From Amoebophrya sp. A120 (taxonomy: Eukaryota; Protista; Dinoflagellata): a DNA stretch of 64,000 bases. The notes beneath the pieces were generated by a model that had not been told where the DNA came from, did not search any database, and worked only from the letters and a program-made list of their open reading frames with translations. This document shows, piece after piece, positions 24,291 through 47,829 of this stretch (within the stretch, counting starts at the first letter, position 1; every line of letters starts with the position of its first letter). Both the position numbers and the translations under genes were made by a program. The stretch lies in the NCBI GenBank assembly GCA_905178155.1, contig CAJINV010000026.1, forward strand, positions 266,289-330,288, written 5' to 3'.

Positions 24291-24377
24291 TCAATGGGAG
24301 TAAATGGAAGAAAAACGCGCAAAGTATCCCCACGCCTTTGGGAGGATAACAATCCTCCCTACAACAGGATAGCAGGC

Positions 24378-27300
24378 TACCAGAAATGGATCACAGTCCG
24401 ATTCTGTAATGCGTGAACAACCGACAGAGATTCCCCGATGAACCGACGTAGACGACGACGCGACGGACGACGGACACCGGACGCACGGACGACGGAACCG
24501 ATGAGAAATCAGCTCGTCTTCTCCACAATGACCATACGATTTTGCTGAAGAATAATTTTTCACACGAAGTGAAAATCACGACCGAATTGCCCGATGATCT
24601 TGGTTTTAGTTTTAGTTGTACAAACGCAAGAGAAAAGCCGCCATATCCCGTAAAAATGCAATAGAGTTGCAAGATAGACGATCCGGAAAGGAAGGCCGTT
24701 TGTTATTTTTTTGGATATTTTCCCTTGCGGGTACAGTGAGAAAAAAGCTGCATTCCGAAGAGCAAACAAGTTACTCAGCAGTCCTATTCTGTTGAATTTG
24801 TGATGCGATTTATTCTTGTCATGGTTTGTTGTTACATCGGCATCATCGTCTGGAAATCAAGAAAAAGCCTCTTCATATTTCCTCAGTTTTACTTGCTTTT
24901 TCCTTCACCAAAAAAACATAACTGAATGCTAGATGCTCGCGTTAGTTCTCCTAGTGCTACATCGTGCGAGAAAAAAAGAATTCCCTCGCTTCGTTGTCCA
25001 CCAAAAAACATTGATAACACAGAATAAGAATAAGGCATAGCTTCTGTATAAGACCTGTTGTCCACTTGGCACGAAGAAAAAACAGAAGAAATTTCGTCGA
25101 TGTGGAGGGCAAATACTTTTGCATACTAGACTTACGCGAGGACAAAGAAGATTACTGCGGCAACGTGCTAGATGCTTTCTACGATTAGTTGTAATTGTTT
25201 CAACCGTTCATCAAAACTTGACTTCACAAAAACTCCCCAAGACGACTGCTGTTCTTTCCGGCAGCGGCGCCAGCCGCGGACGACGTCGATCCCCCGACGC
25301 AGCCCTTGAAGAAGGTTTTCTTTTCCGTCGTTTTTCCTCCGTTCGACGTACTCGATTGCCCTGCTGTTAACCGCTCGCGGATGGCGTGGCGGTCCTTGCT
25401 GTCGGGGACAAAACCGCATAACTGGTCCGGGGTGACCGTCTCAAGCCACTGCAAAGATGTAAATTTATCTTTGCCGCGTGGACCGCATTCGAGACTGGCC
25501 TGTTGGTAATCAAGTTTCCAACTGCCGTCGAGACTCTTGTATCCCGGGATCGTCAAATGACTGAGCTTGTCTATGCATGACAAACTCGCACCCATGGCCT
25601 TGCTTGTCCGTCTCTTCCTGCATCTCCTCGGAAGCCATTTTTCCTCCCTTTTCGAATTTCCTCCACCGAATAACTTCTTTCTCCAACGCAGTGCATTGAA
25701 GCTGCGTTTTATCTTGGTAGTTCTGGAACCGCTCCAACAACTTGTCGCGCCGTTTGTTGCACAGCGAGATGGAGACTGCGTGCGCCTGCGCCTGCTGCTG
25801 GTTCTGCTGCCGCAAGAGGAGGATCTCTTGACGTTGCGTCTTAATCACCTTTTCACGCTCGGCAAGACAAGCATCAAGGTGACAGATTCCGCCTTCCGGG
25901 AAGTTGGAGGCAGTAATAGACTCGAGGCCAAGTCGTTCCCGGTCCGGCGATTCGACATTCTCCCACGGGTGCTGGTGGAAAAGAAGTTTGTGGTCGGGCG
26001 GGAGCAAAAAGGTCGAAAGCGCTGCCGCTTTCTGACCGCACGGCGACAGGACGCAACATTCCACTTTCCCAACTACTTCCCGTCCCAAGCAGGGTTGTTT
26101 TGCCCCCAACTTGTCGGCGCCGACGATCTGCAGGCTGAGGTTGCTGACATCCTCATACTTCCCCTGGAGATACGTATATTCTTCCGGCTGGAAGAGATCG
26201 GCCGGGGGTTCCACGCGTTGGCGCTTCGCGGGTGACAACTCGATGTCATCCAGAGCGTGAAGCACGTCGTCGACGTCGTACTCCTGCATGGCCGCGGTGG
26301 AACCAGAGGGCTTGTTGGACGAAGCAGTGCTGTGGCGCGGAGCAGCAACAACTTCTTGGTCGGAAATCAGGCCGGTGGAAGGCAAGGAGCGGATGATCGG
26401 CCCATCATGAGCAGCGGGCACCGAAGAACTCGGCCCTTTTTCCCCGTGGTAATGACCCTTCTCCACGACTAACTGCGGTAGCATTTCCATATCCTTTCCT
26501 TTCCCTTTCTCGGCGGGCTTGGAGTTGTACGATTCTAAGTCACGCAGCACTTTTTCGCGTTCCTTTTCGATTTCGCGGAGCAGAACACGGGCCTCAGCGT
26601 CACCATCTTGCTCCACCGCCGGGGCAGCGGCGGGCGCAGCAGTTGTCACTTCTTGTTTTACCGCCGGGACAACGACGGACGTAACAGCCGGAACTTCCGC
26701 TGGAGTGGACGACGCAGGTAACGTGGGATTAGTTTCCGGCTCGGGGATGCTGGGGGCAGCAGTCACCGGCGGAATCCGGTAGGGTCCAGTCGACGGCAAG
26801 AGCCACCGAGGCGGCAAGACCACCGGGCCGGGCGAGAATATGGAACTCGATGGCACCGGGACTTCCACATTAGCCGGAGCTTCCACATCAGCCGGAAACT
26901 CCACCTCCACTTGCTCCTCGACTGCAGTCGCATCTTGCTCAACGACCGGAGTCTGAGCCTCCTCCTGAAATTCGGCAGCGGCCGGAGCCTGAATCTGCAT
27001 CGGAGCTTGCACCACGGCATGCACCGGATGGCTCGCGGGATTGTCATCCGCGAGGAGATCACCTTCCTCGTCTTCCGGGGCACTGCTTTCTTCTTCGTCC
27101 ACATTGTTTTCGGCCACTCCGGCACTTTCACCGCCAACACCGTCTTCCTCGTTTGCGATAGCCGCTTGCTCGTCGTTGTTGCCATTTTCTTCGTTCGCGA
27201 TAGCCGCTTGCTCGTCGTTGTTGTCAGCTTCTTCTTCCACATCTTGTTCGGCTGCGGCTTCGACCGGTGGAGCGGGCTGCGCGGGGACTTCCTCGGCCGG

Positions 27301-28617
27301 GCGCGGAATCACGAAGTCGTCGCCGGACGACTCGGAATCAGAATAATTGACGCCGGCACGCGTAAATCTTCCACGCGCGTCTCTTCCCTGCCGGCCCCGT
27401 AAGCCAACACCGCGTCCGCGTTTCGGCGGCATCTCGATGTGTGCGGACACGACGGCGAAGAGAAAAGCAAAAAAGTAACTCATTAACAAAATAAAAATCA
27501 AAACTGTCAGCGGTATCGGTATATGAGGTGAAGCGTCGCGATAGGTCGAAAAGTATATAGGTTTTTTCTGGTGAATTTCAAAGACAAGTAAAACTTTTTC
27601 TCAACTGTTGTTACCCGTAGGCGTAAAATTTTTACCCGAAGGCGCTGCAAACCCGAAGGCATTTTCCCTGGAAGTGTCGATTTAAAAATTGCAATGATTA
27701 AAACTTCCCGATTGAAATTCTCGTGATATTTTTACTTCGACCTTACAGGCTGGCCAGGCTTCCACTAAAAAGAATAAGACTGATTGGCTTTGCGCCGTTG
27801 TTCTGTCGTACTTGAAAAACCTTTCACAGGAAGATAAGCGCGGATCTTTTCCGGTTGAAATTGCCGTGATAAAACATCGAAACTAAAACATCGATCCCTT
27901 CTTGACGGACGAGGCACGCTGCCTTACGCTTAGTTAGTCTTAAATTGGTGATCCTTTTGTTTCAAAGCGGCCGCATGATACCGCTGATCTTGAAGTGAAA
28001 AAATAAAAACTAAAAAGCCGTAGCCGGAGATCAGCGGACTGCTATCCAGATGACCGTAACCGCACTGCTTCCACCGTACGGCCACCGTCGCACCACCGTA
28101 CTCACCATGTCCGTCATATCACCGCACAAGTTGGCTTCCTTACTGTACAGCGTCAGGACCACGGTAAAAACTTCAAGTTCGTCACTACTGCAGTTGCCAC
28201 GCCGCGGACTGGCTCCGCGCCGGGAATTCGGTAGCAACGGCATTTATCTTTCCGATTCCTGCTTCGCCTCGTGACACCTGGTCCCGATATGCATGTAGCC
28301 CTTCTCCTTCTGCGAGCCAAGTTATTCTTTCTCCTGTAATCGCACCTGGACCCGGTCCACCAAATTTGGTAAGCGCAGCAAACAAATTCTTCCGCTTACC
28401 GCTGTGGTGCAGCATCACCCATGAGTTTCTGTCTTTGCAGAAAACCCACAAAGGCTTGCGCAGCCGCAACTCTTCTGCATGCTCCAAAATTTGTTTGATT
28501 CCAATTTCTCCCTGGTAAAACTGGACCTGTGGCGCAACTGAAGCAAAACAATTTGCAGCAGATGTAATTATTTCCAAATCACCCGGCTCAGTGGTGATTT
28601 TTGGTATATTTCCAATA
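24378..28617 (-). repeat. 3' LTR (4240 bp)
   Basis: Colinear, high-identity copy of 42375-46616 from taccagaaatgg to ttccaata. Confidence 0.92.
25224..27501 (-). pseudogene. LTR-encoded ORF (~757 aa reconstructed): basic N-terminus, acidic/Pro-rich middle, coiled coil; frameshifted near 25600
   Basis: ORFs 25510-27501 and 25224-25595 join if a 4-bp duplication (cttg), absent in the other LTR, is removed. Confidence 0.7.
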
Positions 28618-29033
28618 CCGGCACTTTTCTTTTGTTGCTTCAGATGTGACAGCTCTTCTCCTGCTGCCAACTCTTCACGTTCCTCTTGTTCCTGCAGGTG
28701 GAGCTGGTTTCTGATAAACTGCTGCACAATGTCAACAATCCGCTGGTCCAGAGTGCCGAAGTAATTCAGAAGATGCATTGTAGCCAATTCCGCGCGCAAC
28801 GGTCCCTTCGTCAAAATGTCGGGCGGCATGACTTTTCCAGGCACATGACGAACAACAGTTTGACGGTGTTCAAGCATCTGCTGCAGAGAGATGAAGTCCG
28901 ATTTTAGATTTCTCTCCGTGGGGTCAGTGTTAACCAAGTTTTTGCTGTCGGTGAGCTGTAGCAGGGGGACCTTGAATCGCAAAAGACCAAGGCCAAGCGC
29001 TAATTGCTTATGCCAGGCGAGTTCTGACAGCAA
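28185..29033 (-). pseudogene. pol C-terminus: Ty1/copia RNase H second half plus an extension running into the 3' LTR
   Basis: LTDSKNLV and HVPGKVMPPDILTK resemble copia RNase H (DNxxA / ADxLTK); in frame with the upstream ORF across a TGA at 29046. Confidence 0.8.
28624..28633 (-). promoter_or_regulatory. Putative polypurine tract
   Basis: AAAAGAAAAG on the minus strand, 6 nt before the 3' LTR. Confidence 0.45.
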
Positions 29034-29045
29034 AACGCGCTGAGC

Positions 29046-31244
29046 TCAAAGCTCTATGCCCGTGGACGAGTTAAACACGCGCTTCGGTGATTTGCTCCAC
29101 GAAACCAAACACGTCACCCGCTCCGTCCACGGCCCAGCAATGGCGATCACTCCACCGATCTTCGTGCGCGACGCGTCTGCTAATCCGATGATGGCCAGTT
29201 CTCCAGGACCACCAAGTGGCACAATGCGCCTACTGCTAAACTGCTCCGATTGTGCGAAGAGAATGAAACTGCTTACCCGCTCGATGAACTCTTCTACTTC
29301 TTCTGTCACGGTGTTGAAAAGCTCCACTTTGTGCACTTCCGATGCTAATTCCGCGAGCCGTTCCAAAATCACCGAGTTTGTTTTTGACAGCCACAATAAC
29401 TCACCAATGCGTTTGCGAAGCGGGGATTTTACCAGACTTTTCGCATATGCGTTGGGAGCGGCTGCTTTCCGTCTCCAGTAGGATTCCACCTCTTCTACTG
29501 TAAGCTGCTCAATTTTCTTCACGTAGCTCTCCTGCGACAAGTTGTAGGACACCGGAAACTCCGGGCGCAGAATGGGAAATAACTTGCGCAGATTGAACTC
29601 GATGGGCTCTACAGAAGGATAATCCTCTACAGAGGTATCCCGCTTCATCTTGGTTCTTTCCTCAGCAGCAGCTCCCTGCTCTTCGGTGAAAGACGGCTGA
29701 TGTAGACCAAAAGACACTTGAAGTCCCACGCTGTCCAGCGCCGTCTTTTCTTTCTTCATAATTTCGTCTATGTGAAACTTGTCAAACTCGGACGGAACGC
29801 ACGCTACTTCTTTCCCAACAAAAGCGTCTCGCAATCCGCTCTGCAGAACTGCTGCACCGGCTACAGTATATCGGTCGAACAAAACTCCGAGGCGGAGGCA
29901 CGCTATTTCTCCTGCTGCGATGATCATGTCGCCCACGTGAATGCCGAGAGCGCCGAGAATCATGCGCGGTCCGGGATCTTGAAGAGATGTGAGGCTCGAA
30001 ACAAGACGACGAGAAGCCACACTGTAAAGTCCGTCGAAGCTGTCGTCTTTATTGTGGTTACCCCCTTCTTCATCGGGGCTAGAATCACCGGCGTTTTTCT
30101 TTTGTTGCTCTTCAACCGCCTTACTGAAGTGCTGGTCGTAGTTTATTCCCGGCAATTCTAGCGGAGAGTCCAAAACTCTCATTCTTTCGTCTATGTCGGC
30201 CGCAGGAATCTTCGCGATTTGTGCTTCTTTTATTAGCGCGCATTCCTTCTGTCTTCCTTCACGTACTGCGACCTCTTCGCGTGGAGTTGCGTAGAGTCTC
30301 CACAGGCAGGAGGCATGCAGGGATTGCGTAGACTTCAACTGCCGGAGGATGCAGCTTAAAGTTAGCATCCACGCACGCGGAGCGTCTTTGCATCCGTAAG
30401 CGCAGCGCTTCAGACGCATGTAGGGGCGGAAGTCGTATCCTTCCAGCCGCTGCATCAACGGCGGTATGGTCATATACAACTCTGGCGCATCTGCACCATA
30501 CAGCTCCTTAAATGGGAGCCCCCTTAAAAACGCCTTTTGAATGTCCACGAAAGAGGGATGCACTCCCAGCACGGTGGAAAGCTGCAGCAACCACGTGATG
30601 CTCGCTTCTGCCACGGTAAACGACCGACAGACGGGCAAGTTGTCTTGGTTCGCCTCTTTATCCGCCGAAGCGAAAAACCTGGGATCCTGAAGTCCCCGAC
30701 TCACCCAGCGACACTTAAACTTCGACAGTTGTCCGGTGCTGCGGTCGCACTTGACCGCAATCACGACCCTAGAAGTCATGGCCTTGAGACGTTGTGCGGC
30801 AAATTCTTCTTCGGATAAACCGCCATCGAAAGCGTCACTGTTGACGATTTCATCTACTTCGAGCTTTAACGCCGCAAAGAAGTACGAAATACACCCAAGC
30901 TTCGCTGCGGTGTCTTCGTTCACGATCAACGCACTTGTCTTACACTCCTTGAGGTGCTGGCTCAGCGCGTCGTGTGACGTGGAAGTGATTTCGTAGTACA
31001 AGACCGCGTAGAAGGCCCGATCTCCCGGTGGAGCCTTCGCATCTTCGGACAAAAATTCCGTTTCGTCATGCGGGCCGAAACGAAGAACGCACTTTCTTCC
31101 TGGTGAAAGTTCTGGAACAGAACCCCGCTTGACGACGACCGAGGTAACCACATGACGGAAGTCGCGGCTATCTTTCGGCGAGGGAGCCACCGGCTTTCCG
31201 TTGAGAAAAGCGCTCCACTTCCAGATGCGTGGAGAATTGTTCAT
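29046..31244 (-). pseudogene. Ty1/copia-type reverse transcriptase and RNase H N-terminus
   Basis: KCRWVSRG, VDIQKAFL.G, LKRCAYGCKDAPRAW and IHVGDM (YVDD box, first Asp lost); RNase H ADAS ... SSTGIEL. Confidence 0.9.
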
Positions 31245-31256
31245 CAGCTTCTCCCT

Positions 31257-32642
31257 CTAGATGTTTTTTGTTGTGATGCTGGAGCATTCTTCCGCCAGCT
31301 CCGACAACGCAGACTCATCTAGATTTCTCCACGGTCCTTGTTCTTCATCTTCTTTTCGTGGCACCGCCAGGCACGCCTTGCCATTAGACAACACCACTTC
31401 CATGGAAGTTTCACACTTACTGAGCGAGCGAAGCACGGAGGGATGAGTCTGCCCTTGATGTATTACTTTCTCGCGCGGTTTTATTTTTATCGGAACCAAA
31501 TTTCTCGCCGCAGGCACGTAGTCCGAGGAAGCGCGTGCGTAAAAGCTAGAATTACTAGTGGACATATTGCTCGGCGGTTTCCAATCGCTACTGGATTCTT
31601 CAGAGTCTCCGCTTGAGGAAGAAGACAGCTTTTCGGAAGCTCTTCTTTCCGCTTTTAGTTCGGCTATCTTGTCCAATCTTTCCTTCAGCCAATCAATTTC
31701 TCTTCCCCGCTTCATTTCTTCTACTATTTCACCTTTCCAGCTGGAATACCGCTGCAGCAAATCCGTGTCCGATCCGAATTCAGAAGCCGTGGCGTCACCA
31801 TAACGGCCTCCGGACAGAGGGAGAGTCTTCGTATTTCTTGCTATTGGCTTCGGTCTAGACGCGGTAGAAGGCGCTACGCCTTCCTCGGAAGATACTACTG
31901 CAGGTCTGCGCGGAGTGTCATCATCCGCGCTACTATTACTTTCCCGCAATGCTTGGGACAGATCCGACGCAGCGGACAGCAATTCTTCTTGCTTTTCCTC
32001 TACATCCGCCCTTTTTCGATCTTGTTCATAGTCGCGATCCTGTGCTCCCTTTACTGACCCGGAGGACAAACCACTGAGAGAAAACCTATCTCCGTCTGGA
32101 AACACACCTCCTTGCTCCGACTCCTCTTGAATAGCCGGCATCGATGCAGTATTCATCCGCACTTTCTTCTTTGCCCGCGGCTTTGCCTTCTCTGAAGAGC
32201 TAGAACTGGTTTCCTCCTGCGGATCAGAACTGTGATCCGTGAGATTACTGACTGAGCTGGTTTCTTCCGACGAAAATGCTTCAAATCTTTTACGCAGATT
32301 CCTTTTTGCAGAAGCTGTTCCGGCGGCGGGTGGCATTTCAACCTTCCGCGTCGGTTTCGGCACTGTTCGTTTTGGAGCAGGAGGAGGCATTTGCTCACTA
32401 GACTCGGACACATCGGCATCACCTGAATCGTCGCGAAAAGAAACACGCGGACGCGGCACGGGCGGATCTGATCGCATATTTATTTGGTGCGTCATCTCCA
32501 TCCGAATCATCGTCATCATCCTGCTCGGTGTATCTTTCTCTCTCCGACTCTGATCCGCTGAGTCCTTCGCTTCGGGAAATATCTCCGTGCTCCGAAACGC
32601 CTGAAACAAGTTGCCCCGGTCCGAAATCCGGATACTCTGCAT
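31257..32642 (-). pseudogene. Low-complexity linker of pol between integrase and RT
   Basis: Ser/Glu/Lys-rich; overlaps the upstream ORF (frameshift at ~32450-32640) and is in frame with RT across a TAG at 31257. Confidence 0.6.
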
Positions 32643-35600
32643 CTTGTGGCTCGAATTCCTCTACCTCATCGGAAATCGAAACCTTCTGCCTTGATCGCCA
32701 ACGAAAAGTAGTCGGCATAATCTTGTCCGGATGTTTCAAGGAGAAACGCTGTTGCATTCGTTGCTTACTGCTGAGCTGCCTATTGCACTCGGGACAAGTG
32801 AACCGACCTAATCCAGCGCCGGCACCTGCGCCGCGGTTAGTAGAGGTTCCATCATCTACGAGACTACTCTGCCATCCGACTTTTGTTCGCCGCTCTAATT
32901 CTTCTGCAACTGGAGCTGTTGGAAAGAATTCCAACGGCCCAATTTCTGGATCTACTGCTGTCGTAATCACTGCAATATCTGCCCGTGAATAGTTTGCAAT
33001 GCGCGTCCCCACACGAACATCCGCACTTTCTGCATACTTCGCCGTAACTTCTCCACGATGATACTGCCGGAATTTACCATCAGCACGACGAACAAGAACT
33101 TGTTGTCCCGGAAGGATGGTTTCAAAATCCCGAGCACGCTGGTAGGAACGACCGGAAATCTCTGCTCTTCTCCCGAGGTTTTCCACATCGTGCATGCGGA
33201 TCTGTGCAGCGCACAGCTGCTGCACTTTCGCCCGATACAGCAAAAACCCCTCGACTTCCGTTGTATTACTCTCCATCAGCGTTTCTACGGCGTCAATGTG
33301 CCCGGTGTTACCCCGCGTAAAAGTGCCCGCATGCACATTGAACGGACAAAGCGCAGTACCGAGTATCGGCGAACTGTTCAGCTGAAAGCAAAGCTCTTGT
33401 AATACATCTTGTGCAAAAAGATGTCGGTCGAGAAAGAGACGGGAGTCCCCTGCTCGTTTTAGAGTGTCCTCGAGCAGACTGGGCAGGTAGGAATTTTGCT
33501 CCAATCCCCATAGTAACATCTCCAGCATCGGCTCGTAGGGTTCCGCGAGAAACTTTTGCTCGGTGCGCCGCGCCGTGGAGTTTGTTCTCTCCAATTTACT
33601 CAGCTTCCACGCGCTTTTAAAAGAAACCGGATGCGGCGCGACGTTTTTGCTCCGTAGCAGTTGGAAGAAGCGACTGCTCACAAATTCCCTTCCTTGATCA
33701 AAAATTATTTTCTCGCATACTCCGCGACAGAGAGTTTGCATTGCTAAAAAGCCACGGGCAGCGGCCGCTCCCCATCCGCCTGCTCCTGCATCCACAAGCA
33801 TGCCGACGCGCAAGCGCGACACGACATCGATGCACCACACTACTTTTCCTACTTTCGTGGTCAACGTATCGCAGATCCACACCTTATTGACGTCAGGGGC
33901 GAACTGCAGCAGCGACCCACGATTGCGGACTGCTTCTGTGCGGTCAAAAAGTCGACACTTCGGACATTGACTCCGCACATGTTGGATGTACTTGTGAATC
34001 TTCGGCTTCAACAGAATTCGCAGGCTAGCGGAGTGGCCGAGATTCTTGTGTTCCCGTATGACCCAGGCTTTTTCTGCCTCGGTGATTCCATGTGCAGACT
34101 CGTCTTCACCGACACTACTACTGCTGGTTTTTACTGAGGTGGTAGGTTCGGTAGACAAATTCAAATTGAGCGAATCCTCTCCGCCATAAGATAAGTACGC
34201 CGCTGCGTAGAACGACCGAGCCGCTACTGACGAGATTATCTTCTTTTCCTCCGGCTCTTGCGGGGGAGGATCGCTGTTCCTTGAAGACAAGGAAAAGCAT
34301 TCTGGTTGCTGTTCTAGTTCGGCGGCCTCCGGACAAAAAATTCCGTCCTCCTTGTCGGAATGTTCGTCGTATTCATTCCGCTTGTCTCCAATGTAAAAAC
34401 TGGTAGCTGTGTTGTCGGGGATAAGATGTTCATGATACTTATCCCAGTCACCGGAGGTAAATAAATATTCGTGATCTACTGCCGCAAAGCTGCTCAGACC
34501 GTTTTGCCAAAGGAATTCTGGTCCTTGGCTGTCAGGTGGAGGAGTGTCCGTAGGAACAAAAGCATCCGGAAAAAATATTTCTTCGTAGTTGAGCGTGGGA
34601 ACGGTCGCAAACACGCCGGTGGGCATAATCCGCCCCCTCATGCATTGCATGTCCAACAGCTCTTGTTCTTCTTGGGTGATTTTCGGACGAAATTGCTCGA
34701 CGATTGCTGCTGCCTGGTTTTCTAACCGTAGCAAACGCCATGCATTGCGTCTCTTAAGCTCTTCGTCGATAAAATTCGCCACCAGGTAGGAGTCCGAGAA
34801 TAACTGTTCCGGATCAGCTTCCCGCTTCTTTCTGAGTGACGCCGGCCTGACTGTTTTCGTTCTTTGTTCCTTCACTTGTTCTTTAGTCAAAAACTGCACT
34901 CTGACTCCGTCAACCCCATTGACCAAAGCCGATTCCTTCCAGCGGCCGGAGATGCGGAGCTTCGGTGTTTCGTAGCCGTGATCACTAGCAACTCCGTACC
35001 GCCGCCAAAATGGTTCTCCGAGAATGACAGGACACGTGCGTTGCGGCGTATCTTGAATGATTTCAAAACTGCCTTCGAAAATTTCATCGGAGAAGAAGTC
35101 AGGTAGGCGAAAATGAAGATTGATCCTCCTGCTTGCCGTCTTCGCTTCGGACGTGTCATCCGCATCTGCATGGATGGAGCCGAAGGAGACTGGATCAACT
35201 GGCTTGAAAACTTTACCACACTGTCCTAGCACTGGTAACAGACTGCCCGGGACCAACATGTGTGTGCTGCAGTTGTCGACAATGGCAAATCCACTGAATT
35301 TGTCTCCTCGCAGTTGTTTATTTTTTGCGTAAAATGCCGCCGCCGCATTTCGTGCTCTTTTTCCAACTACTCCCTGGTCTGGCACGAGCGGGAAGTCCTG
35401 CAAAGTCTTACTGGTCTGCGGATACTCACCGCCTTCCGGACGAGCGTAGGGAGCAATTCTGCGTAGAAGTTTTACACGGCCTGCCTGATCGCGCCGATAG
35501 TTAGTTCTTCTCCGATTTGTGCTCTCATAGTCGATGGAAGCGACGGTGTCCAATTCCACAATTACTACTTCTATTCGCGGAATATCTTCGCACCTCCACC

Positions 35601-35871: not shown

Positions 35872-35934
35872 ACAAAAGATATCTGCTTTACCGGGTTCTC
35901 GTACTTGTCGGTAGGTGTTTGTGTTCGGAAAAAT

Positions 35935-37140
35935 TTAGAACATTGCTCGTGCCAAGCCCGCTGCTTGTCCGTCCTGCGCCAGGGTGTTCGTCTGGTGCAC
36001 CAGGGCGTGCAAATCGCACTCGGACAGCAAATTACCTTCTCTTTCTTCGACGAGGTTGGAATGGACATCGCTCCGTGGAAGATACGGAAAGTGCTGGTCG
36101 GTGTTCATGCATGATCTCACGATCATCAACGCAATACCAGCCGCGTTAGAACCAGTCCAGACGCATGCGCCATGCACTTCGTCTGCTGACAACCCACAAT
36201 GGACATCGGGCCAGTTGGACACGTTGAGAATTGTTCGCCTGCCGGTAGAGACCAAGCGACCCGCTACATCTTTTTGGAGGATAGCTTTCTCGTATTGCCT
36301 TCGAAAGTACCGGATGAAATTCTCTTCAGCGGTGTCCGTGGAGGAAAAAGCGTTTACTTCTCGTCCCAGCACGATTAGTTCTTTTGCAGTGCTGCCTTCT
36401 TCCTCTTCTCCCGGAAGAATCGACTCGTCGTCCAAAACTCCTACTGCTAAAGCGAACGGCGCCTTGTAGTAGTTTGAAAGAAGTCTCTTCCTCCGCAGCA
36501 CCTCCTCGTTGCTAATCGGTACAAAGAAAACAGGAGACGCAGAGGCATGCGATTCTGTTTCCTCCGATTCTTCCAGCGGCTGAAACTGATTGTAGCTCTG
36601 TGGCGGCGTCTTTTCCGTATCCTGCTTGGATGACGCATTCGCGTGTTCTTCTTTCGACAAGGAACCGGCAGAAGAGCCGGTAGTAGCTCTTTCTGATTCG
36701 CTTAAAACTCGACTACTGTTGCTGCTGCGCATAACCACATCCGCCGAGGCTGGCTGCGCCGCAGGTTCTGACACGCTGCCCAAAATGGGACTTACAACGT
36801 CGGTGCCCAAAATGGGACTTTCAGAATTGCCCAAAATGGGACTTATGGAAGACTGTTGCGCCGGCGGTTCCGACGGATCAGACCGGCTAGCTTTACTCGA
36901 GGTAGGGCCACTTACTTTACTACTCTTTACATTTTGATCTGACTCCATGACATGGTCGGACTGTTGCTGTGATTCTGTCTGTTCTGCTTTCTTTCCGTCT
37001 GAAACTTTTACTTTCAAACTCATGCCGATCTCGATTTCTTTGTCGTCGCCGGTGGAAATGGTGACTGGTACTTTTCTTGTTGTACTTCTCGTTGCGTAGG
37101 AAGATGATGAAGAAAAATCGGAGCTGTTTTTCTGAGTCAC
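35935..37140 (-). CDS. Polyprotein segment between gag and protease, ending in the macrodomain N-half
   Basis: EGNLLSECDLHALVHQTN...AAGLARAMF; in frame with gag (TGA at 37210) and with the downstream ORF (TAA at 35935); a short SPILG x3 repeat. Confidence 0.7.
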   Translation of the reverse strand: MTQKNSSDFSSSSSYATRSTTRKVPVTISTGDDKEIEIGMSLKVKVSDGKKAEQTESQQQSDHVMESDQNVKSSKVSGPTSSKASRSDPSEPPAQQSSISPILGNSESPILGTDVVSPILGSVSEPAAQPASADVVMRSSNSSRVLSESERATTGSSAGSLSKEEHANASSKQDTEKTPPQSYNQFQPLEESEETESHASASPVFFVPISNEEVLRRKRLLSNYYKAPFALAVGVLDDESILPGEEEEGSTAKELIVLGREVNAFSSTDTAEENFIRYFRRQYEKAILQKDVAGRLVSTGRRTILNVSNWPDVHCGLSADEVHGACVWTGSNAAGIALMIVRSCMNTDQHFPYLPRSDVHSNLVEEREGNLLSECDLHALVHQTNTLAQDGQAAGLARAMF

Positions 37141-37209
37141 ATACTCCTCTCCCGCGGTCTGACTCTGACCAGATGACAGCGAGCTGTCATGCGGGTGGGG
37201 TAATGAGAT

Positions 37210-39090
37210 TCACTTCTTTCCACCTCCCTTTTTGCCACCACCCTTGGCCTGCTCATCCTTACGCTTCTTGGCGGCCTCCTGCGACAAACGCTGACTCTCC
37301 TTGTACACACGAGCGGCTTCCTCCGGTCCGACGCGCTGCTCAAATTTCTCCTTCATTGTCTTGTACTCTGCAGGAGCGTGGTAAAACTTGCACCGGCCCG
37401 TCTGCTCAATCTTCTTACAGCGGCCGCGCAGTTCGCTCCACAGCTTACCGTCGGCTTCCAGAGCAGCACCCTGCGGGACAACACGTCCGTGGTTGTTGGA
37501 ATCGGTTCCGCCCGCACCATAATAGGAAGACGGACGATCATCGCCCTTCTTATTCCGGTAATAGTTGCTGTTGTGGTTGTAGCGCCGATAACCCAACTCC
37601 ATGAGTTTTTTCTGGGCGTCGTCTTCCCGATTTCCCGTTTCTCCGATCAGGGAGAGAGGGTCGGTTAACGCGGAGTTTTCGTCTTTCCCCGCCGGAATAG
37701 TCGAGTCTTCGCGTCGTTTTTCGTCGTAAGTGTACCGAGCAGAGTCGGCACACACGCGCTCCACTTCTTCAACGAAAGCATCGTAGTCGTATTGCAAATC
37801 CCGGATCCGGTGACTATTCAAAAGCTGGCGGGTTATGTGCGAAATACACAGCCCGCGCAATGCGATTTCAATTTTCGAATTATCGGATCTCTTACTCCCC
37901 GTGAGTTCCAACTCGCGATCAAATATCACACCCAAAAGACCTACGAATTCCTTTGGATGGAGACCATCCGGACGCACCACCATGGGAAGTTTGTTCTCGA
38001 TGCCAGCCTGTACACCCTCGCGTCGCAACGAGTAGCGTTGTTGGAGGATGATCATTTTGTCGGATAAATTCGGCCCCGACCGATCGGCAAGCGCATGACG
38101 CACGGGAGCGTTGCCAAAGGAACCCAACGCCACCTTTTCGGCCAGCTTGATCCGATCCACTCCCGGAAGACGCAGGAGCGTGCTCGCCCACGTGAACATT
38201 TGGGAATTCCAGCGCCGCAAGGAAATGATGTTCAACTTTGGCGGTTGTTCCAAGGTACGCAATTCTACCTTTTCGAGTTCGTTCAGCGTGGTCTTGCCCG
38301 GTTGCGGCTTGATGTCCCGGAGAGACGCCCAGCCCAACTGGTCCACTCTCTCTTCTCCCCTCTGGTCAAACTTCGACTTCCGGTTCCCCTCGACTTCTTC
38401 CAGCCGACTGGCTAGCAGCTCGCACTTCTGATTGTTTTGGTTCAACAAATCCTGCAGCTCGGGCGACAAATTCAGTGCCGCGGCGGCATGCGAGATCGAG
38501 CCCGGAGATGTAGAAGACGGAGTACCGGCTTTGTTGTTCAGCACAGCTTCTTCGATCGGAAAAAGCTTCCGCGGAGCGACAAGCTCCGGAGACGAAGGAG
38601 CGGTCTCGCGCAGCAGGCCGGGCGGAGAACGGATGTCCCCTTTTCCGCTGGAAGCGAACACTCCATCAAAAAGATTACCGTCGTAATCTTCCGCTCCGTA
38701 CACCGCGGCCGTTTCTTTCCCGGGCGAATTAACGTCCAGGCCGCCGCGCGTTTTCCATTCTTCTTTCGAGTAATGGACTGGAGTCAAAGTTTCTCCCGAG
38801 TGCGCGCGACGATGTTTCTCCATCGCGGCTTCGACCAACCTTTGCAACTCCTCATCGCGTGCTTTCTTCTTCTCCTTCTCCTTTATTTGATACACCTGCG
38901 CACTGCAGATGCGACTAATGAAATCGAAGCAACAGGTTGCCACTTTGTTACTTTTACTGGTGGAAAGTTGTAGCTTGCGAAGTTGTTTTTTGAAGTTGTA
39001 AAGCAGCGGGACACAGAAGAAAAATCCACACGGATTTCGGGACGCTGAAGGAGGTAGCTTTTTTTCACAAATGTTCCGGCTGTCTTCCAC
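37210..39090 (-). CDS. Gag-like protein (copia-type capsid region, C-terminal Cys/His finger-like motif, basic tail)
   Basis: Position upstream of PR; W..M..W...L.QRY...FV...G..D..I.I.LRGL pattern resembling copia Gag; CKKIEQTGRCKFYH. Confidence 0.7.
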   Translation of the reverse strand: MEDSRNICEKKLPPSASRNPCGFFFCVPLLYNFKKQLRKLQLSTSKSNKVATCCFDFISRICSAQVYQIKEKEKKKARDEELQRLVEAAMEKHRRAHSGETLTPVHYSKEEWKTRGGLDVNSPGKETAAVYGAEDYDGNLFDGVFASSGKGDIRSPPGLLRETAPSSPELVAPRKLFPIEEAVLNNKAGTPSSTSPGSISHAAAALNLSPELQDLLNQNNQKCELLASRLEEVEGNRKSKFDQRGEERVDQLGWASLRDIKPQPGKTTLNELEKVELRTLEQPPKLNIISLRRWNSQMFTWASTLLRLPGVDRIKLAEKVALGSFGNAPVRHALADRSGPNLSDKMIILQQRYSLRREGVQAGIENKLPMVVRPDGLHPKEFVGLLGVIFDRELELTGSKRSDNSKIEIALRGLCISHITRQLLNSHRIRDLQYDYDAFVEEVERVCADSARYTYDEKRREDSTIPAGKDENSALTDPLSLIGETGNREDDAQKKLMELGYRRYNHNSNYYRNKKGDDRPSSYYGAGGTDSNNHGRVVPQGAALEADGKLWSELRGRCKKIEQTGRCKFYHAPAEYKTMKEKFEQRVGPEEAARVYKESQRLSQEAAKKRKDEQAKGGGKKGGGKK

Positions 39091-39214
39091 TGTAGTTGTA
39101 TGCTTTACTGTTGGCTTTCCTGGTACGAGCCGACTGCTTGTTCTAGTTGAGGACGTACCGAAAGTCCCTTTTTGTTCTGCACGGTGTGTACGAAATTACT
39201 GGACGAAACCGAAA

Positions 39215-40606: not shown

Positions 40607-40613
40607 AAAAGGT

Positions 40614-41555
40614 TCAAGCCGTAAAGTTTTGTACTAAACTATTGACCAACTCTCTACAAATCGGACAGCGCGCGTCGTGTTGCAAAGCCCGCTCCGCGCA
40701 AGGAATACAACAGACGGCATGTCCCGTGCGACCGTGTACGAATGTGGCGTCGGACTCAACTTCCATACACACAATGCATGGACTATGCAGTCGGTGTGAT
40801 GCAGTAGAGTGGGCAGGAGACGGCGGCGGAATCGGAGTGCGGTACTGGTTCAGCGCAGAGCTGTTGTTGTTTACTTGTCTCGGTGAAGTCAAGCCCTGCA
40901 CTACTCGGCTGAAAAAACCCCCGCGAGACGGAGATGATTGCTCGATTCCGTTTAAAGAGCTGGCAGCTTCAGGCAAGGCTGGAACAGGATTCGAACTGCT
41001 GCTGCTCTGTTCCTGACGCTGTTGTTCTTGTCGTGCACGAAGATCGGCAATCAAAATGCGCTGTCTCTCGATAGCGGCCTGGTTGTCCCGAAGCGGTTGG
41101 TCAGACAGACGAGCGGCTTGTTGCTGTAAGCCGAAAGCTTCCTGTAGAAACTGTGCTGCTCGGCCGTTTTGGAAATGGAGGACTCTTGCTTGACGGTTTC
41201 GCTCCTGTTCTAATTCCTGCAAGCGAGTAAACTGACGATCAGCCAAATTTTCTATTGTTGTCTCCGTCGTGACGTCTTGTACCGGATTTTCCACCGCGGC
41301 TTCCTCGGCAATAGCAGCGATTCTGTCGCGCGGAGTGTATTCGGGTTCTTCACGGCGCGGCAAAATTGTTCTCCAGGAAGGGTCTCTTCGTTCGCGCTGC
41401 AGACGGTGTCTCTCGCTCTCCTGGTTTATTTCAAAAAGTGTCCGTGGATTTTGTTGATTTCCCCAGAATGCGGGAAGACGGTCTGCCGGTCCTGGTACTG
41501 CTCTGTCTGCTCTGCTCGGTGTTACGACTTGACAAAAGCGCGGATGCTCGTACAA
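40614..41555 (-). CDS. Accessory coiled-coil protein with a C-terminal Mdm2-type RING finger (putative E3 ligase)
   Basis: CIVC...FVHGRTGHAVCCIPCA...CPICR at the extreme C-terminus matches the C2H2C4 RING pattern of Mdm2/MdmX. Confidence 0.82.
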   Translation of the reverse strand: MYEHPRFCQVVTPSRADRAVPGPADRLPAFWGNQQNPRTLFEINQESERHRLQRERRDPSWRTILPRREEPEYTPRDRIAAIAEEAAVENPVQDVTTETTIENLADRQFTRLQELEQERNRQARVLHFQNGRAAQFLQEAFGLQQQAARLSDQPLRDNQAAIERQRILIADLRARQEQQRQEQSSSSSNPVPALPEAASSLNGIEQSSPSRGGFFSRVVQGLTSPRQVNNNSSALNQYRTPIPPPSPAHSTASHRLHSPCIVCMEVESDATFVHGRTGHAVCCIPCAERALQHDARCPICRELVNSLVQNFTA

Positions 41556-41956
41556 AACTGGTCCACGTCGAGATTGCGGCGCGCCGTATTTTGTATTCTT
41601 TCCTCTGCAGCCGTGCGGCCCAAAAACACAATCGGAGCTTCTCGATCACCAATGACGTTCGTGAAGTTGTGTCTGATATCGTTGGAGTTTCGTTCTATTA
41701 GATCCCGGAGATCGTCGCCGTCTAAAAGTTGTCTTGCCCCTCTCACTACTTGCGCTGGTTGACCGGTGCGAAAACGGCGGTAGTTTGGGAAGCGAAGATC
41801 TGGACGGTTCACCAAGTTGCAGCACTGAATGGAGCCGATCAGATCGCGTTCTCCGCTTGGTAGATAGTTGCTGTGCCGGTCGATAATAATTATCACTCCT
41901 CTTCTCCAGTGTCGTTGATGCCAAACAGGTTCAAGATTTCGGATATCCGTGTGCAA
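41522..41956 (-). CDS. Accessory ORF, unknown; may be a frameshifted N-terminus of the RING protein
   Basis: 144-codon ORF overlapping the RING ORF start. Confidence 0.35.
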   Translation of the reverse strand: MHTDIRNLEPVWHQRHWRRGVIIIIDRHSNYLPSGERDLIGSIQCCNLVNRPDLRFPNYRRFRTGQPAQVVRGARQLLDGDDLRDLIERNSNDIRHNFTNVIGDREAPIVFLGRTAAEERIQNTARRNLDVDQFCTSIRAFVKS

Positions 41957-42360
41957 TTGCTCGAGATTGATTCAGGTAGTTATAAAGTAAGCCGCTCTCG
42001 ATGGTAACAGTAGGCGGAAAGTAATCGCGACGTGGTTGATCAGGAGCTTGCTGGTTTTGCATACGGCGCGCTGGAGGTAAAAGCTTTTGGTAGTATCTGC
42101 TTCTTTTTTAGCACGCGGATCGAACGAAGGCAGTCACTTCATCGATGCCAAGGCTTATTGTTTTTCTTGCTTCTTCTAGTTGATCGACAATGAAATCTTG
42201 CAGCGCGGAAAGCATAAAATTAGACAAAAATCACCTGGGTGATTTGTCTTTACAGACAAAATCACTTTCCTGCTTCTTGCTCAGCACAAACTGGCGCGGT
42301 ATGTACGGCAGGTAGTGCTTGCTGCTCTTCGGTTTTCGACGTGACGGAGGTTTACTAGGC

Positions 42361-42374
42361 TCTGGCGCTCACCA
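42361..42374 (-). promoter_or_regulatory. Putative primer binding site
   Basis: TGGTGAGCGCCAGA directly abuts the 5' LTR end; TGG complements tRNA CCA; the cognate tRNA was not identified. Confidence 0.6.
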
Positions 42375-45300
42375 TACCAGAAATGGATCACAGTCCGATT
42401 CTGTAATGCGTGAACAACCGACAGAGATTCCCCGATGAACCGACGTAGACGACGACGCGACGGACGACGGACGCCGGACGTACGGACGACGGAACCGATG
42501 AGAAGTCAGCTCGTCTTCTCCACAATGACCATACGATTTTGCTGAAGAATAATTTTTCACACGAAGTGAAAATCACGACCGAGTTGACCGATGATTTTGG
42601 TTTTAGTTTTAGTTGTACAAACGCAAGAGAAAAGCCGCCATATCCCGTAAAAATGCAATAGAGTTGCAACATAGACGATCCGGAAAGGAAGGCCGTTTGT
42701 TATTTTTTTGGATATTTTTCCTTGCGGGTACAGTGAGAAAAAAGCTGTATTCCGAAGAGCAAACAAGTTTCTCAGCAATCCTATTCTGTTGAATTTGTGA
42801 TGCGATTTATTCTTGTCATGGTTTGTTGTTACATCGGCATCATCGTCTGGAAAACAAGAAAAAAATCTCTCCATATTTCCTTAGTTTTACTTGCTTTTTC
42901 CTTCACCAAAAAAACATAATTGAATGCTAAATGCTCGCGTTAGTTCTCCTAGTGCTACATCGTGCGAGAAAAAAAGAATTCCCTCGCTTCGTTGTCCACC
43001 AAAAAACATTGATAACACAGAATAAGAATAAGGCATAGTTTCTGTATAAGACCTGTTGTCCACTTGGCACGAAGAAAAAACAGAAGAAATTTCGTCGATG
43101 TGGAGGCCAAATACTTTTGCATACTAGACTTACGCGAGGACAAAAAAGATTATTGCGAAAACGTGCTAGATGCTTTCTACGATTAGTTGTAATTGTTTCA
43201 ACCGTTCACCAAAACTTGACTTCACAAAAACTCCCCAAAACGACTGCTGTTCTTTCCGGCAGCGGCGCCAGCCGCGGACGACGTCGATCCCCCGACGCAG
43301 CCCCTGACGAAGGTTTTCTTTTCCATCGTTTTCCCTCCGTTCGACGTACTCGATTGTCCTGCTGTTGACCGCTCGTGGATGGCGTGGCGGTCCTTGCTGT
43401 CGGGGACAAAACCGCATAACTGGTCCGGGGTGACCGTCTCAAGCCACTGCAAAGATGTAAACTTATCTTTGCCGCGTGGACCGCATTCGAGACTGGCCTG
43501 TTGGTAATCAAGTTTCCAACTGCCGTCGAGACTCTTGTATCCCGGGATCTTCAAATGACTGAGCTTGTCTATGCGTGACAAACTCGCACTCATGGCCTTG
43601 TCCGTCTCTTCCTGCATCTCCTCGGAAACCATTTTTCCTCCCTTTTCGAATTTCCTCCACCGAATAACTTCTTTCTCCAACGCAGTGCATTGAAGCTGCG
43701 TTCTATCTTGGTAGTTCTGGAACCGCTCCAGCAACTTGTCGCGCCGTTTGTTGCACAGCGCGATGGAGACTGCGTGCGCCTGCACCTGCTGCTGGTTCTG
43801 CTGCCGCAGGAGGAGGATCTCTTGATGTTGCGTCTTAGTCACCTTTTCACGCTCGGCAAAACAAGCATCAAGGTGACAGATTCCGCCTTCCGGGAAGTTG
43901 GAGGCAGTAATAGACTCGAGGCCAAGTCGTTCCCGGTCCGGCGATTCGACATTCTCCCACGGGTGGGGTGCTGGTGGAAAAGAAGTTTGTGGTCGGGCGG
44001 GAGCAAAAAGGTCGAAAGCGCTGCCGCTTTCTGACCGCACGGCGACAGGACGCAACATTCCACTTTCCCAACTACTTCCCGTCCCAAGCAGGGTTGTTTT
44101 ACCCCCAACTTGTCGGCACCGACGATCTGCAGGCTGAGGCTGCTGACATCCTCATACTTCCCCTGGCGATACGTATATTCTTCCGGCTGGAAGAGATCGG
44201 CCGGGGGTTCCACGCGTTGGCGCTTCGCGGGTGACAACTCGATGTCATCCAGAGCGTGAAGCACGTCGTCGACGTCGTGCTCCTGCATGGCCGCGGTGGA
44301 ACCAGAGGGCTTGTTGGGCGAAGCAGTGCTGTGGTGCGGAGCAGCAACAACTTCTTGGTCGGAAATCAGGCCGGTGGAAGGCAAGGAGCGGATGATCGGT
44401 CCATCATGAGCAGCGGGCACCGAAGAACTCGGCCCTTTTTCCCCGTGGTAATGACCCTTCTCCGCGACTAACTGCGGTAGCATTTCCATATCCTTTCCTT
44501 TCCCTTTCTCGGCGGGCTTGGAGTTGTACGATTCTAAGTCACGCAGCACTTTTTCGTGTTCCTTTTCGATTTCGCGGAGCAGAGCACGGGCTTCAGCGTC
44601 GCCATCTTGTTCCACCGCCGGGGCAGCGGCGGGCGCAGCAGTTGTCACTTCTTGTTTTACCGCCGGGACAACGACGGACGTAACAGCCGGAACTTCCGCT
44701 GGAGTGGACGACGCAGGCAACGTGGGATTAGTTTCCGGCTCGGGGATGCTGGGGGCAGCAGTCACCGGCGGAATCCGGTAGGGTCCAGTCGACGGCAAGA
44801 GCCACCGAGGCGGCAAGACCACCGGGCCGGGCGAGAGTATGGAACTCGATGGCGCCGGGACTTCCACATTAGCCGGAGCTTCCACATCAGCCGGAAACTC
44901 CACCTCCACTTGCTCCTCGACTGCAGTCGCATCTTGCTCAACGACCGGAGTCTGAGCCTCCTCCTGAAATTCGGCAGCGGCCGGAGCCTGAATCTGCATC
45001 GGAGCTTGCGCCACGGCATGCACCGGATGGCTCGCGGGATTGTCATCCGCGAGGAGATCATCTTCTTCGTCTTCCGGGGCACTGCTTTCTTCTTCATCCG
45101 CATTGTTGTCGGCCACTCCGGCACTTTTACCGCCAAAACCGTCTTCGTCGTTTGCGATAGCCGCTTGCTCGTCGTTGTTGCCATTTTCTTCGTTCGCGAT
45201 AGCCGCTTGCTCGTCGTTGTTGTCAGCTTCTTCTTCCACATCTTGCTCAGCTGCGGCTTCGACCGGTGGAGCGGGCTGTGCGGGGACTTCCTCGGCCGGG

Positions 45301-46616
45301 CGCGGAGTCACGAAGTCGTCGCCGGACGACTCGGAATCAGAATAATTGACGCCGGCACGCGTAAATCTTCCACGCGCGTCCCTTCCCTGCCGGCCCCGTA
45401 AGCCAACACCGCGTCCGCGTTTCGGCGGCATCTCGATGTGTGCGGACACGGCGGCGAAGAGAAAAGCAACAAAGTAACTCACTAACAAAATAAAAATCAA
45501 AACTGTCAGCGGTATCGGTATATGAGGTGAAGCGTCGTGATAGATCGAAAAATATATAGGTGCTCTCTGGTGAATTTCAAAGACAAGTAAAACTTTTTCT
45601 CAACTGTTGTTACCCGTAGGCGTAAAATTTTTACCCGAAGGCGCTGTAAACCCGAAGGCATTTTCCCTGGAAGTGTCGATTTAAAAATTGTAATGATTAA
45701 AGCTTCCCGATTGGAATTCTCGTGATATTTTTACTTCGACCTTACAGGCTGGCCAGGCTTCCACTAAAAAGAATAAGACTGATTGGCTTCGCGCCGTTGT
45801 TCTGTCGTACTTGAAAAACCTTGCGCAGGAAGATAAACATGGATCTTTTCCGGTTGAAATTGCCGTGATAAAACATCGAAGCTAGAACATAGATCCCCTC
45901 TTGACGGACGCGGCGCGCTGCTTTGCACTTAGTTAATCTTAAATTGGTGATCCTTTTGCTTCAAAGCGGCCGCATGATGCCGCTGATCTTGAAGTGAAAA
46001 AATAAAAACTAAAAAGCCGTAGCCGGAGATCAGCGGACTGCTATCCAGATGACCGCAGCCGCACTGCTTCCACCGTACGGCCACCGTCGCACCACCGTAC
46101 TCACCATGTCCGTCATATCACCGCACAAGTTGGCTTCCTTACTGTACAGCGTCAGGACCACCGTAAAAAATTCAAATTCGCCACTGCTGCAGTTGCCACG
46201 CCGCGGACTGGCTCCGCGCCGGGAATTCGGTAGCGACGGCATTTATCTTTCCGATTCCTGCTTCGCCTCGTGACACCTGGCCCCGATACGCATGCAGCCC
46301 CTCTCGTTCTGCGAGCCAAGTTATTCTTTCTCCTGTAATCGCACCTGGACCCGGTCCACCAAATTTGGTAAGCGCAGCAGACAAATTCTTCCGCTTACCG
46401 CTGTGGTGCAGCACCACCCACGAGCTTCCGTCTTTGCAGAAAACCCACAAAGGCTTGCGCAGCCGCGACTCTTCTGCATGCTCCACAATTTGTCTGATTC
46501 CAATTTCTCCCTGGTAAGACTGGACCTGTGGCGCAACTGAAGCAAAATAATTTGCAGCAGATGCAATCACTTCCAAATCACCCGGCTCAGTGGTGATTTT
46601 TGGTATATTTCCAATA
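42375..46616 (-). repeat. 5' LTR (4242 bp)
   Basis: Copy of 24378-28617, followed by TSD CAGGC. Confidence 0.92.
43222..45500 (-). pseudogene. Second copy of the LTR-encoded ORF, frameshifted near 43961
   Basis: A 5-bp duplication (gggtg) absent from the other LTR splits the ORF. Confidence 0.7.
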
Positions 46617-47829
46617 CAGGCCCCTCAAGTATGTCCACAATTTTGCAAATTTTTCAAATCTCTGCAAATATGGAAAAAGTTACCAGATTCGTGCCTGTCT
46701 GCTTTACAGGATTAAAAGATCAGGCAGAATGATTGCAATTGCATCTTTCGGCGAGTTTTTTTAAGCGATGGAATACCCGAATTATCAGAAAAGAAATTTT
46801 CAATAATTTTCAAAATCAAACAAATAGAGGAAAATTTTACAAGATAGGAAAGATCCAGCCTTGTGGATACAAACAGAGCAAAGAAATACACACAGCTTTT
46901 AAATTCAGAAGGTTTCTGGCCTGCATTCGGCAAATTTTTACCAATTCGCAAATATTTCAATTTTTTTTGAATTTTGCAAAAATACCCAAATTCTTCTTTA
47001 ATTTATGGACTTCACCACTAAAGGAAGCATATACATGATATATATTATGAGTGTGTTGATCATCCGCGTACTATATTGCATTTTATGAATTAATTTCCAC
47101 GCGGGCAAATTTTTCATTTTTTTGGATGTTGAAAATTATCAAAAATATTGGCGCAATATAGTAAAAACATTCCAGCCAATGGAAAGAGAATGCAAAACTA
47201 TATGGTGGCCCTGTTGTATATCTATGCCATGGACGCTCTTTGGCGATATTCACCACCGGGAGACTTTTTCAATTTTTGGAAATTTTTGAAAATTAGGGAA
47301 AGTCAGCATTTATGGAGCCAATCAGAGCCACAAAATACAGCAAACACAGAAAAACACAAACAGGAGTGCGCTATTTTGATTTTTATCCCAAAGTACCGCG
47401 GCCGAATCCCCTCTAGCTGAGTTTGCGAATTGCCAAGCACGCTCCCCTTCCCCCCACCATCCTTCTTCCTCCCCCCCCCCCCCTCCTCCTCCCACTCCTA
47501 ACAACGATGGAGAGGGCACCGAGTAGCCATAGAATAGCAACAGCTTGCCCCTGCGGCCGCTCCATAACTGCGCAAGCCATAACCATGACACACGCGGGCG
47601 CGGGCTACGAAACAAATGGAACGGGTCACAAACCCATCCGGGGCCCAACACCCGGGCCGACCTTTTGCCGTATCGGCGCGCGGCCCGCAGCCAGCAACAC
47701 AAGGAAGCGGCGCGCCGAAAGTTTTTAGAGCGCCACGAATCGACTCCCCCCGCGACGGGGCGCGAAGCGCAGGAAGTTCGCCAATATTCCACACCAGTGG
47801 CGAAATAGTTGCGCGCGCCCTTGCTGTCG

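Follow-up and report, generated by a model that had tools for sequence, protein, structure and literature searches.

A 22-kb copia-like retrotransposon with TA termini in Amoebophrya sp. A120 and the partial likeness of its ends to those of neighbouring introners

Termini and anatomy of the element

A 64,000-nucleotide (nt) stretch of Amoebophrya sp. A120 DNA, here called the window, holds a very large long terminal repeat (LTR) retrotransposon of copia order together with numerous introners, which are short elements resembling miniature inverted-repeat transposable elements (MITEs) and spliced as introns. Both kinds of insertion carry TA at their ends and are flanked by a 5-base-pair (bp) target-site duplication (TSD), and a preliminary description had proposed from this that the retrotransposon shares the end grammar of the introners and may be their autonomous mobiliser. 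All coordinates below are positions in the window, and the comparisons of ends, motifs and TSDs are confined to it. The element occupies 24378-46616 on the minus strand (22,239 bp), begins TACCAGAAAT at 24378 and finishes ATTTCCAATA at 46616, and is built from the following parts.

24373..24377, no strand: left TSD, CAGGC; junction crossed by short-read contigs spanning 21351-24407
24378..28617, minus strand: 3' LTR, 4,240 bp, both ends TA
28624..28633, minus strand: polypurine-tract-like AAAAGAAAAG, 6 bases ahead of the 3' LTR
42360..42374, minus strand: primer-binding-site-like stretch with TGG as its first bases, immediately following the 5' LTR
42375..46616, minus strand: 5' LTR, 4,242 bp, both ends TA
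46617..46621, no strand: right TSD, CAGGC, from the sequence and the LTR alignment

The TA...TA ends and the perfect 5-bp repeat CAGGC of the preliminary description are thus confirmed on both sides, the contigs across the left junction coming from two DNA runs of one sample. The LTRs are 96.6% identical across 4,251 columns, with a Kimura two-parameter divergence of 0.033 (4,236 aligned columns, of which 112 show transitions and 22 show transversions), and a direct LTR pair with a TSD of 4-6 bp is what is expected of Ty1/copia. All four LTR ends are TA, in place of the canonical TG...CA termini, which are usual rather than obligatory; because the inner LTR boundaries share this feature, the TA ends do not result from decay after insertion. 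The outer ends pair as an inverted repeat at 7 of 10 positions. An alternative delimitation with a 4-bp TSD and a shifted right end was rejected, since the 10-bp inverted repeat sets both ends at TA. No tRNA gene was found in the window, and the priming tRNA for the TGG-starting stretch was not identified.

Coding content and state of this copy

The coding regions, listed in the direction of transcription and ending with the reading frame inside the LTR, are these.

40614..41645, minus strand: accessory open reading frame (ORF) with a C-terminal RING finger, 343 amino acids (aa) from stop to stop; Pfam zf-C3HC4_3, E 1.6e-8
37210..39195, minus strand: gag-position ORF, 661 aa, TGA at 37212; putative gag, from its position
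35935..37209, minus strand: weak NADAR-like segment, 424 aa, TAA at 35937; Pfam E 1.2e-4, below cut-off
32419..35934, minus strand: protease-integrase ORF, 1,171 aa; aspartic-protease-like motif, HHCC, D-D-E, beta-barrel C-terminal domain, degenerate C2H2
28626..31496, minus strand: reverse transcriptase (RT)-RNase H region, in a frame different from that of the integrase; in-frame stops at 31259 and 29048
25510..27600, minus strand: LTR-internal ORF, 696 aa in the 3' LTR, with a frameshifted 586-aa counterpart at 43839-45599 in the 5' LTR

The order protease-integrase-RT-RNase H is that of Ty1/copia. Pfam recognises an rve integrase weakly and, downstream of it, RVT_2 at E 9e-6, under the curated cut-off; a profile of the clade's RT places it in the RVT_2 family, since all 11 of its matches carry PF07727 (best E 2e-16). 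A search with the integrase region against 1.84 billion representatives returned 25 relatives, 33-50% identical, and all 20 that were traced to their source are proteins of Amoebophrya sp. AT5.2. RT or RNase H is present in the same protein in 20 of the 25; of the remaining five, two contain a protease-like portion and the others are fragments, 219-417 aa long. The RT-RNase H region is 27-40% identical to that of the AT5.2 relatives and shares their RT insertions, and the gag-position ORF is homologous to the N-terminal part of the relatives P0011 and P0012. An alignment-based model of the integrase, with a predicted local distance difference test (pLDDT) score of 66, has retroviral integrases as its best Foldseek matches (E 2e-9, with low TM-scores); a single-sequence model reached a pLDDT of only 37.6, and a sequence search of the PDB gave integrases at E 0.06-0.7 only. 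The element belongs to a divergent, Amoebophrya-type copia clade, and the earlier view of it as giant, copia-like and non-canonically ended gains support from the LTR pair, the domain order, the RT clade and the integrase fold.

The proposed autonomy does not hold for this copy. In the integrase, HHCC and D-D-E are intact; the RT reads HVGD, as against HVDD in nine of nine aligned relatives, and stops lie in frame at 37212, 35937, 31259 and 29048, with a further frame break between integrase and RT. With these lesions the copy has neither an open gag-pol nor a full set of intact catalytic motifs, and so is not autonomous. A recoded genetic code was considered for the stops and ruled out, because the two in the RT region face different conserved residues in the relatives.

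Some further features of the coding region may be recorded. The RNase H frame (28185-28626, minus strand) runs through the purine tract and about 140 codons into the 3' LTR; in P0001, the closest AT5 relative, it ends near the LTR boundary. A C2H2 zinc finger following the C-terminal barrel of the integrase (about 32720-32800, minus strand) is degenerate in the element, and its pattern is intact in P0001, P0006, P0008 and P0015; a finger of this kind is unusual in copia integrases. The LTR ORFs are acidic and proline-rich, with no Pfam match and no Atlas match at 0.9 or above.

Introners of the window

The catalogue of introners comprises 22 elements with 44 ends. When terminal inverted repeats (TIRs) with TSDs were searched for without any assumption about end sequence, TA..TA elements with a 5-bp TSD outnumbered every other class, with 15 candidates; the next class, of 7, consists mostly of internal offsets of the same elements. 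TA starts 42 of the 44 ends (39 TAT, 3 TAC), and the 5-bp TSD is exact in 17 of 22 elements, matches at four of five positions in 4 and is unmatched in 1 (21134-21389, of uncertain boundary), in agreement with the earlier statement that nearly all introners have TA...TA ends and a 5-bp repeat. The TIRs are family-specific, with 17-25 of the 25 terminal bases paired. The end consensus is TAT[CG] followed by AAA at positions 11-13: C or G stands at position 4 in all 44 ends, and A at positions 11, 12 and 13 in 40, 41 and 42 of them, which gives the TAT-N7-AAA pattern. The TSD sequences of the 22 introners reveal no evident target preference, so that the single target site of the LTR element is not discriminating.

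A subterminal motif, TGT[ACG]ATGC (TGTVATGC), is strongly concentrated in the introners, with 76 matches in 6,958 bp of introner (10.9/kb), 6 in 17,997 unique bases of the element and 5 in 34,803 other bases (0.14/kb, near chance); one of these last five, at 50852, has an extended TTTGTCATGC context. It faces inward in 23 of the 44 ends, at positions 33-34 (8 ends) or 41-46 (15 ends), and occurs in either orientation in 30. The two clusters of positions lie about one helical turn apart and recur across unrelated introner families.

Contigs of run X7, taken as RNA-type by guess, skip the introners starting at 11011, 11312, 13855 and 15151. The introners needed for individual discussion are as follows.

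4841..5637, no strand: 797 bp, a member of the 2069-2284 family enlarged by tandem repeats
11011..11261, no strand: TA..TA, TSD AACAA; skipped in an RNA-type contig
11312..11590, no strand: TA..TA, TSD AGAAA; skipped in an RNA-type contig; terminal hairpin z -6.6
13855..14131, no strand: TA..TA, TSD GCGAA; the skip is exactly the element plus one TSD, and the frame is restored

The join at 13855 leaves a frame open for 460 codons, as against three stops in the best unspliced frame, and the join across 11011 and 11312 has no stop in 175 codons, its 45-base middle exon being deduced from contig coordinates. One end of the introner at 4841-5637 is 87% identical to 2069-2284, and its middle consists of 51-bp and 13-bp tandem repeats. 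The introner at 20533-20848 has TA ends and a subterminal box at 43-44 without an A-tract at 11-13, and those at 21134-21389, 57580-57836 and 16797-17140 are older or partly decayed, with the TSD or one end mismatched. In the left flank of the retrotransposon (24358-24377), about 15 bases look like a segment from inside introners of the 10471/11312 family, a resemblance that does not continue in the right flank.

LTR ends compared with introner ends

Three copies of the introner motif lie in the 3' LTR.

24405..24412, plus strand: TGTAATGC, introner-enriched motif, at position 28 inside the U5 end; also at 42402
24799..24806, plus strand: TGTGATGC, second motif copy, from the LTR motif scan
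25575..25582, minus strand: TGTCATGC, third motif copy, in the 3' LTR only

What the LTR ends and the introners have in common is TAY...RTA and the 5-bp TSD. Beyond TAY the LTR end fails the introner terminal profile: positions 11-13 read GGA and ATA at the two LTR ends, as against AAA in introners, and position 4 at the U3 end is T, as against C or G. Scored against a profile of introner positions 3-16, the two LTR ends obtain -15.1 and -13.5; 39% and 32%, respectively, of background TA sites (n=3,841) score at least as high, whereas the leave-one-out median of the introners is +14.4. The motif TGTAATGC does lie in the U5 end as the preliminary description had it, and it stands at position 33 of introner 11312; its position in the LTR, however, is 28, where no introner has it (33-34 and 41-46 being the introner positions), and the U3 end is without it. 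The U5 motif is genuine and of mild significance, but it is present at one end only and out of phase with the introner boxes. Of the further copies reported near 24800-24822, one is a variant, TGTGATGC at 24799, and the site at 24817 has one mismatch. The claim of a shared end grammar therefore stands for TAY...RTA, the 5-bp scar and one subterminal motif at one end, and falls for the A-tract, the profile at positions 3-16 and the distance of the motif from the end.

Wider comparison gave little more. The U3 end matches the introners no better than usual (181 of 200 shuffles were as good), blastn of 26 introner stretches against the element found no extended homology (best E 0.006, internal), and tblastn of 25 clade proteins against the introners gave nothing under E 0.06. 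An integrase profile found no cognate transposase of the introners in the window.

Other copies and flanking sequence

Read depth over the LTR is about 2-6 times that of the single-copy flank, as against hundreds to thousands of times in introner bins, a rough measure in which depth is not copy number; the LTR family looks low-copy. Among the LTR variants listed, 16 of 33 are absent from both LTRs of the element. A variant LTR contig of 649 bases stands at about twice single-copy depth, which suggests one further element or more, possibly younger, whose LTRs are nearly identical. In runs X4 and X7 the LTR depth is zero, and since the flank is likewise zero this is evidence neither for nor against LTR expression.

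Among viral contigs there were 81 pattern matches and no relative. Metagenome contigs yielded 37 loci, all distant RTs (24-42% identity over short segments), none of which was matched by the clade integrase profile. The closest RT-RNase H relative among them (L001, 600-2800; profile score 123 bits) is AT-richer and lies on a contig with no definable LTR end; three others (L021, L030, L037) have paired LTRs beginning TGT and are not close relatives.

To the right of the element, the region 46622-49900 comprises an AT-rich stretch in which short inverted repeats are numerous, a GC-rich stretch at 47800-48580 made of repeats resembling GGGCAC/CCCACATC and, at 48700-49900, a stretch rich in GAATC.

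Origin of the introners

The A120 genome carries about 30,000 repeated non-canonical introns, and introner ends begin TAT there and TTA in strain A25; the parts of Farhat et al. (2021) covered here name no mobiliser and draw no link to LTR elements (PMC7789003). A Ginger-like A120 introner family that has TA/TA ends, a 5-bp TSD and homology to copia has already been published: family 38 of Gozashti et al. (2025) is a TIR element with ORFs homologous to copia and gypsy (PMC12130899), entered as '5-bp TSD, TA/TA Termini', Ginger (PMC12130899 supplement). In the 58 A120 rows of that work a named family appears in two only, Ginger and Mutator, and in none is the final class LTR, although the body of the paper does speak of LTR-derived introners; the matches of A120 family 3 include copia RT, integrase and RNase H domains, and the Mutator-like family has GG/CC ends (PMC12130899). 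Elsewhere, TA..TA is the usual end of IS3EU/GingerRoot elements (PMC10045372) and is found in 72 of 77 GingerRoot copies (PMC6839031), 5-bp TSDs are made by the TDD-4/5 Gingers (PMC2836005), and TA...TA copias exist in Arabidopsis (AtRE1) and in the TATA group of lotus (10.1101/137141, PMC9804982). The literature searched, with subscription papers thinly covered, holds no report of the present element or of its integrase as a mobiliser, and the portions consulted of PMC11889832, PMC11539532 and PMC9860276 contain nothing on it.

There is about an even chance that the introners were inserted by a separate, as yet unfound TIR transposase of integrase-like type (Ginger or IS3EU/GingerRoot); the TA ends and 5-bp scar that the two kinds of element have in common are then likely the product of related chemistry and not of a single enzyme serving both. 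The retroelement presumably moved by tRNA-primed reverse transcription and integrated at TA-3' ends with a 5-bp stagger, and the introners would move as DNA, by a putative transposase that reads TAT[CG], the A-tract at 11-13 and TGTVATGC boxes one helical turn apart (33-34 and 41-46); by analogy with Ginger1 and Gypsy integrase, it may descend from a copia-type integrase of this lineage. A separate enzyme is favoured by LTR ends that lack the A-tract and motif position of the introners and, at the U3 end, their C or G at position 4, by the absence of extended homology between introner stretches and the element, by the disabled, low-copy state of the element, and by the existence of integrase-like DNA transposons with TA..TA ends or 5-bp TSDs. 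A weaker argument comes from AT5, where the copia clade is diverse and abundant (AT5.2) and 99.98% of predicted introns are GT-AG, so that the clade alone does not seem to cause an introner burst.

A number of observations weigh against a separate integrase-like transposase. The AT5 figure depends on gene prediction, and the proposed enzyme was found neither in the window nor in the literature searched; short integrase-only relatives were absent at E<=0.001 among 5,106 candidates, in a search insensitive enough to miss known short relatives, and an equally insensitive profile search for them gave four AT5-type proteins only. Screening with Repbase DNA-transposon domains is reported to have yielded two putative transposases for A25 but not one for A120 (PMC7789003), family 38 is only about 810 bp long (PMC12130899), and the TSD of IS3EU/GingerRoot is 6 bp as against 5 bp in the introners, which are therefore not filed as members of that group. 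TA..TA is rare in plant copias, at 0.41% in lotus (PMC9804982), so that its coincidence with the ends of the local introners asks for a cause. The terminal profile is not absolute either: two of the 44 introner ends score below the LTR ends, and the introner at 20533-20848 has no A-tract at either end. Finally, the U5 end is somewhat closer to the introners than expected by chance: a random site has the motif at 25-55 in 403 of 110,856 cases (about 0.0036 per end, or 0.007 for two ends), and the resemblance of the U5 70-mer to introners was equalled in 3 of 200 shuffled sequences and in 6 of 300 control sequences from the genome.

These last points are the ones on which a copia integrase acting in trans would draw, that is, the integrase of an intact sister copy or family and not of this copy, although such a route is judged unlikely. 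Spliced intron RNA (element plus 5 bases) would be reverse-transcribed, trimmed to TA-3' and integrated with a 5-bp stagger, in a copy-and-paste manner. In its favour are the same TAY...RTA ends and 5-bp TSD, the low chance of the U5 motif, the three motif copies in a 4.24-kb LTR as against five in 34.8 kb of other DNA, the intact HHCC and DDE with a retroviral-integrase fold predicted by the model, the further LTR lineage indicated by the 16 variants and the 649-base contig, and an RNA skip of precisely element plus one TSD. The absence of DNA transposases among the A120 domains reported (PMC7789003) and the copia RT, integrase and RNase H listed for family 3 (PMC12130899) point the same way. 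By contrast, the LTR ends misfit the introner profile beyond position 3 and the motif is displaced by half a helical turn, AT5.2 has the clade in abundance with no reported burst of non-canonical introns, and no LTR integrase moving MITEs is reported in the literature searched, as far as the sources extend. Free linear introner DNA would also be needed; excised intron RNA, with its strong hairpin (z -6.6 at 11312), could supply it after reverse transcription, but this proposed derivation has no demonstrated priming route. LTR integrases act on free linear DNA ends and are not known to cut elements out of chromosomes. It is doubtful, too, that a lineage-specific giant copia clade, with a TA-specific integrase and an RT working on excised hairpin intron RNA, drives the Amoebophrya intron invasion; if it did, such an engine would account for introners numbering tens of thousands even though no DNA transposase was found in the genome.

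It is similarly improbable that a transposase unrelated to integrases, for instance a hAT-like enzyme with a 5-bp TSD, moves the introners and that their ends match those of the copia purely by chance. Long TIRs and repeated subterminal boxes are typical of classic TIR transposons, and the family-specific TIRs (17-25 of 25 paired) and boxes at 10.9/kb fit that description; 5 bp is the default LTR TSD, TA..TA copias such as AtRE1 arise repeatedly (10.1101/137141, PMC9804982), and a Mutator-like introner family with GG/CC ends is on record for A120 (PMC12130899). Such an enzyme is opposed by the Repbase domain search that found none in A120 (PMC7789003) and by the naming of only Ginger and Mutator among the 58 rows (PMC12130899), and it leaves the LTR motif unexplained. 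The least probable account makes TGTVATGC the binding site of a host protein related to chromatin, transcription or splicing, with host constraints shaping both kinds of end, in which case the motif would be uninformative about the enzyme. The occurrence of the motif in both orientations, in all introner families and at five places outside both kinds of element would suit a host factor, but its density outside introners is near chance, and the TSD and TA ends would be left unaccounted for.

With a separate integrase-like transposase preferred, the partnership of integrase and introner is a testable lead, in which the integrase of this element remains a candidate. The locus supplies a concrete candidate family for the enzyme behind the roughly 30,000 non-canonical introns of A120 (PMC7789003), and the missed partner may sit among sequences masked as copia. 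Moreover, the element, a TA-ended copia of 22 kb whose 4.2-kb LTRs carry an ORF, departs from what is seen in plants, where non-canonical copias have short LTRs.

Comparison with known systems

IS3EU/GingerRoot and Ginger2/TDD have integrase-related DDE enzymes, and they share with the introners and the element either TA..TA ends (IS3EU/GingerRoot) or a 5-bp TSD (TDD-4/5). IS3EU/GingerRoot lacks HHCC, however, Ginger ends read TGT, and no member of either group was found in the window. Family 38, compared by its published description only, is an 810-bp Ginger-like TIR element and not an LTR retrotransposon like the 22-kb element. The introners of the window fit the A120 introners described by Farhat et al. 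(2021), with TAT, seven variable bases and at least three As, direct repeats of 3-5 nt and non-canonical splicing (PMC7789003).

The retrotransposon itself has the copia domain order, TA...TA ends and 5-bp TSD of the non-canonical Ty1/copia elements AtRE1 and lotus TATA. Those elements have short LTRs, with a mean of 272 bp in non-canonical copias and of 229 bp in lotus TATA, as against 4.24 kb here, and the present element differs further in its long LTR ORF, its RING and NADAR-like segments, its 22-kb length and an RT and integrase that fall below Pfam cut-offs. With the copia-order polyproteins of AT5.2 type (P0001 and 24 others, 20 of the 25 traced to that source) it shares, at the integrase and RT-RNase H identities given above, the same RT insertions.

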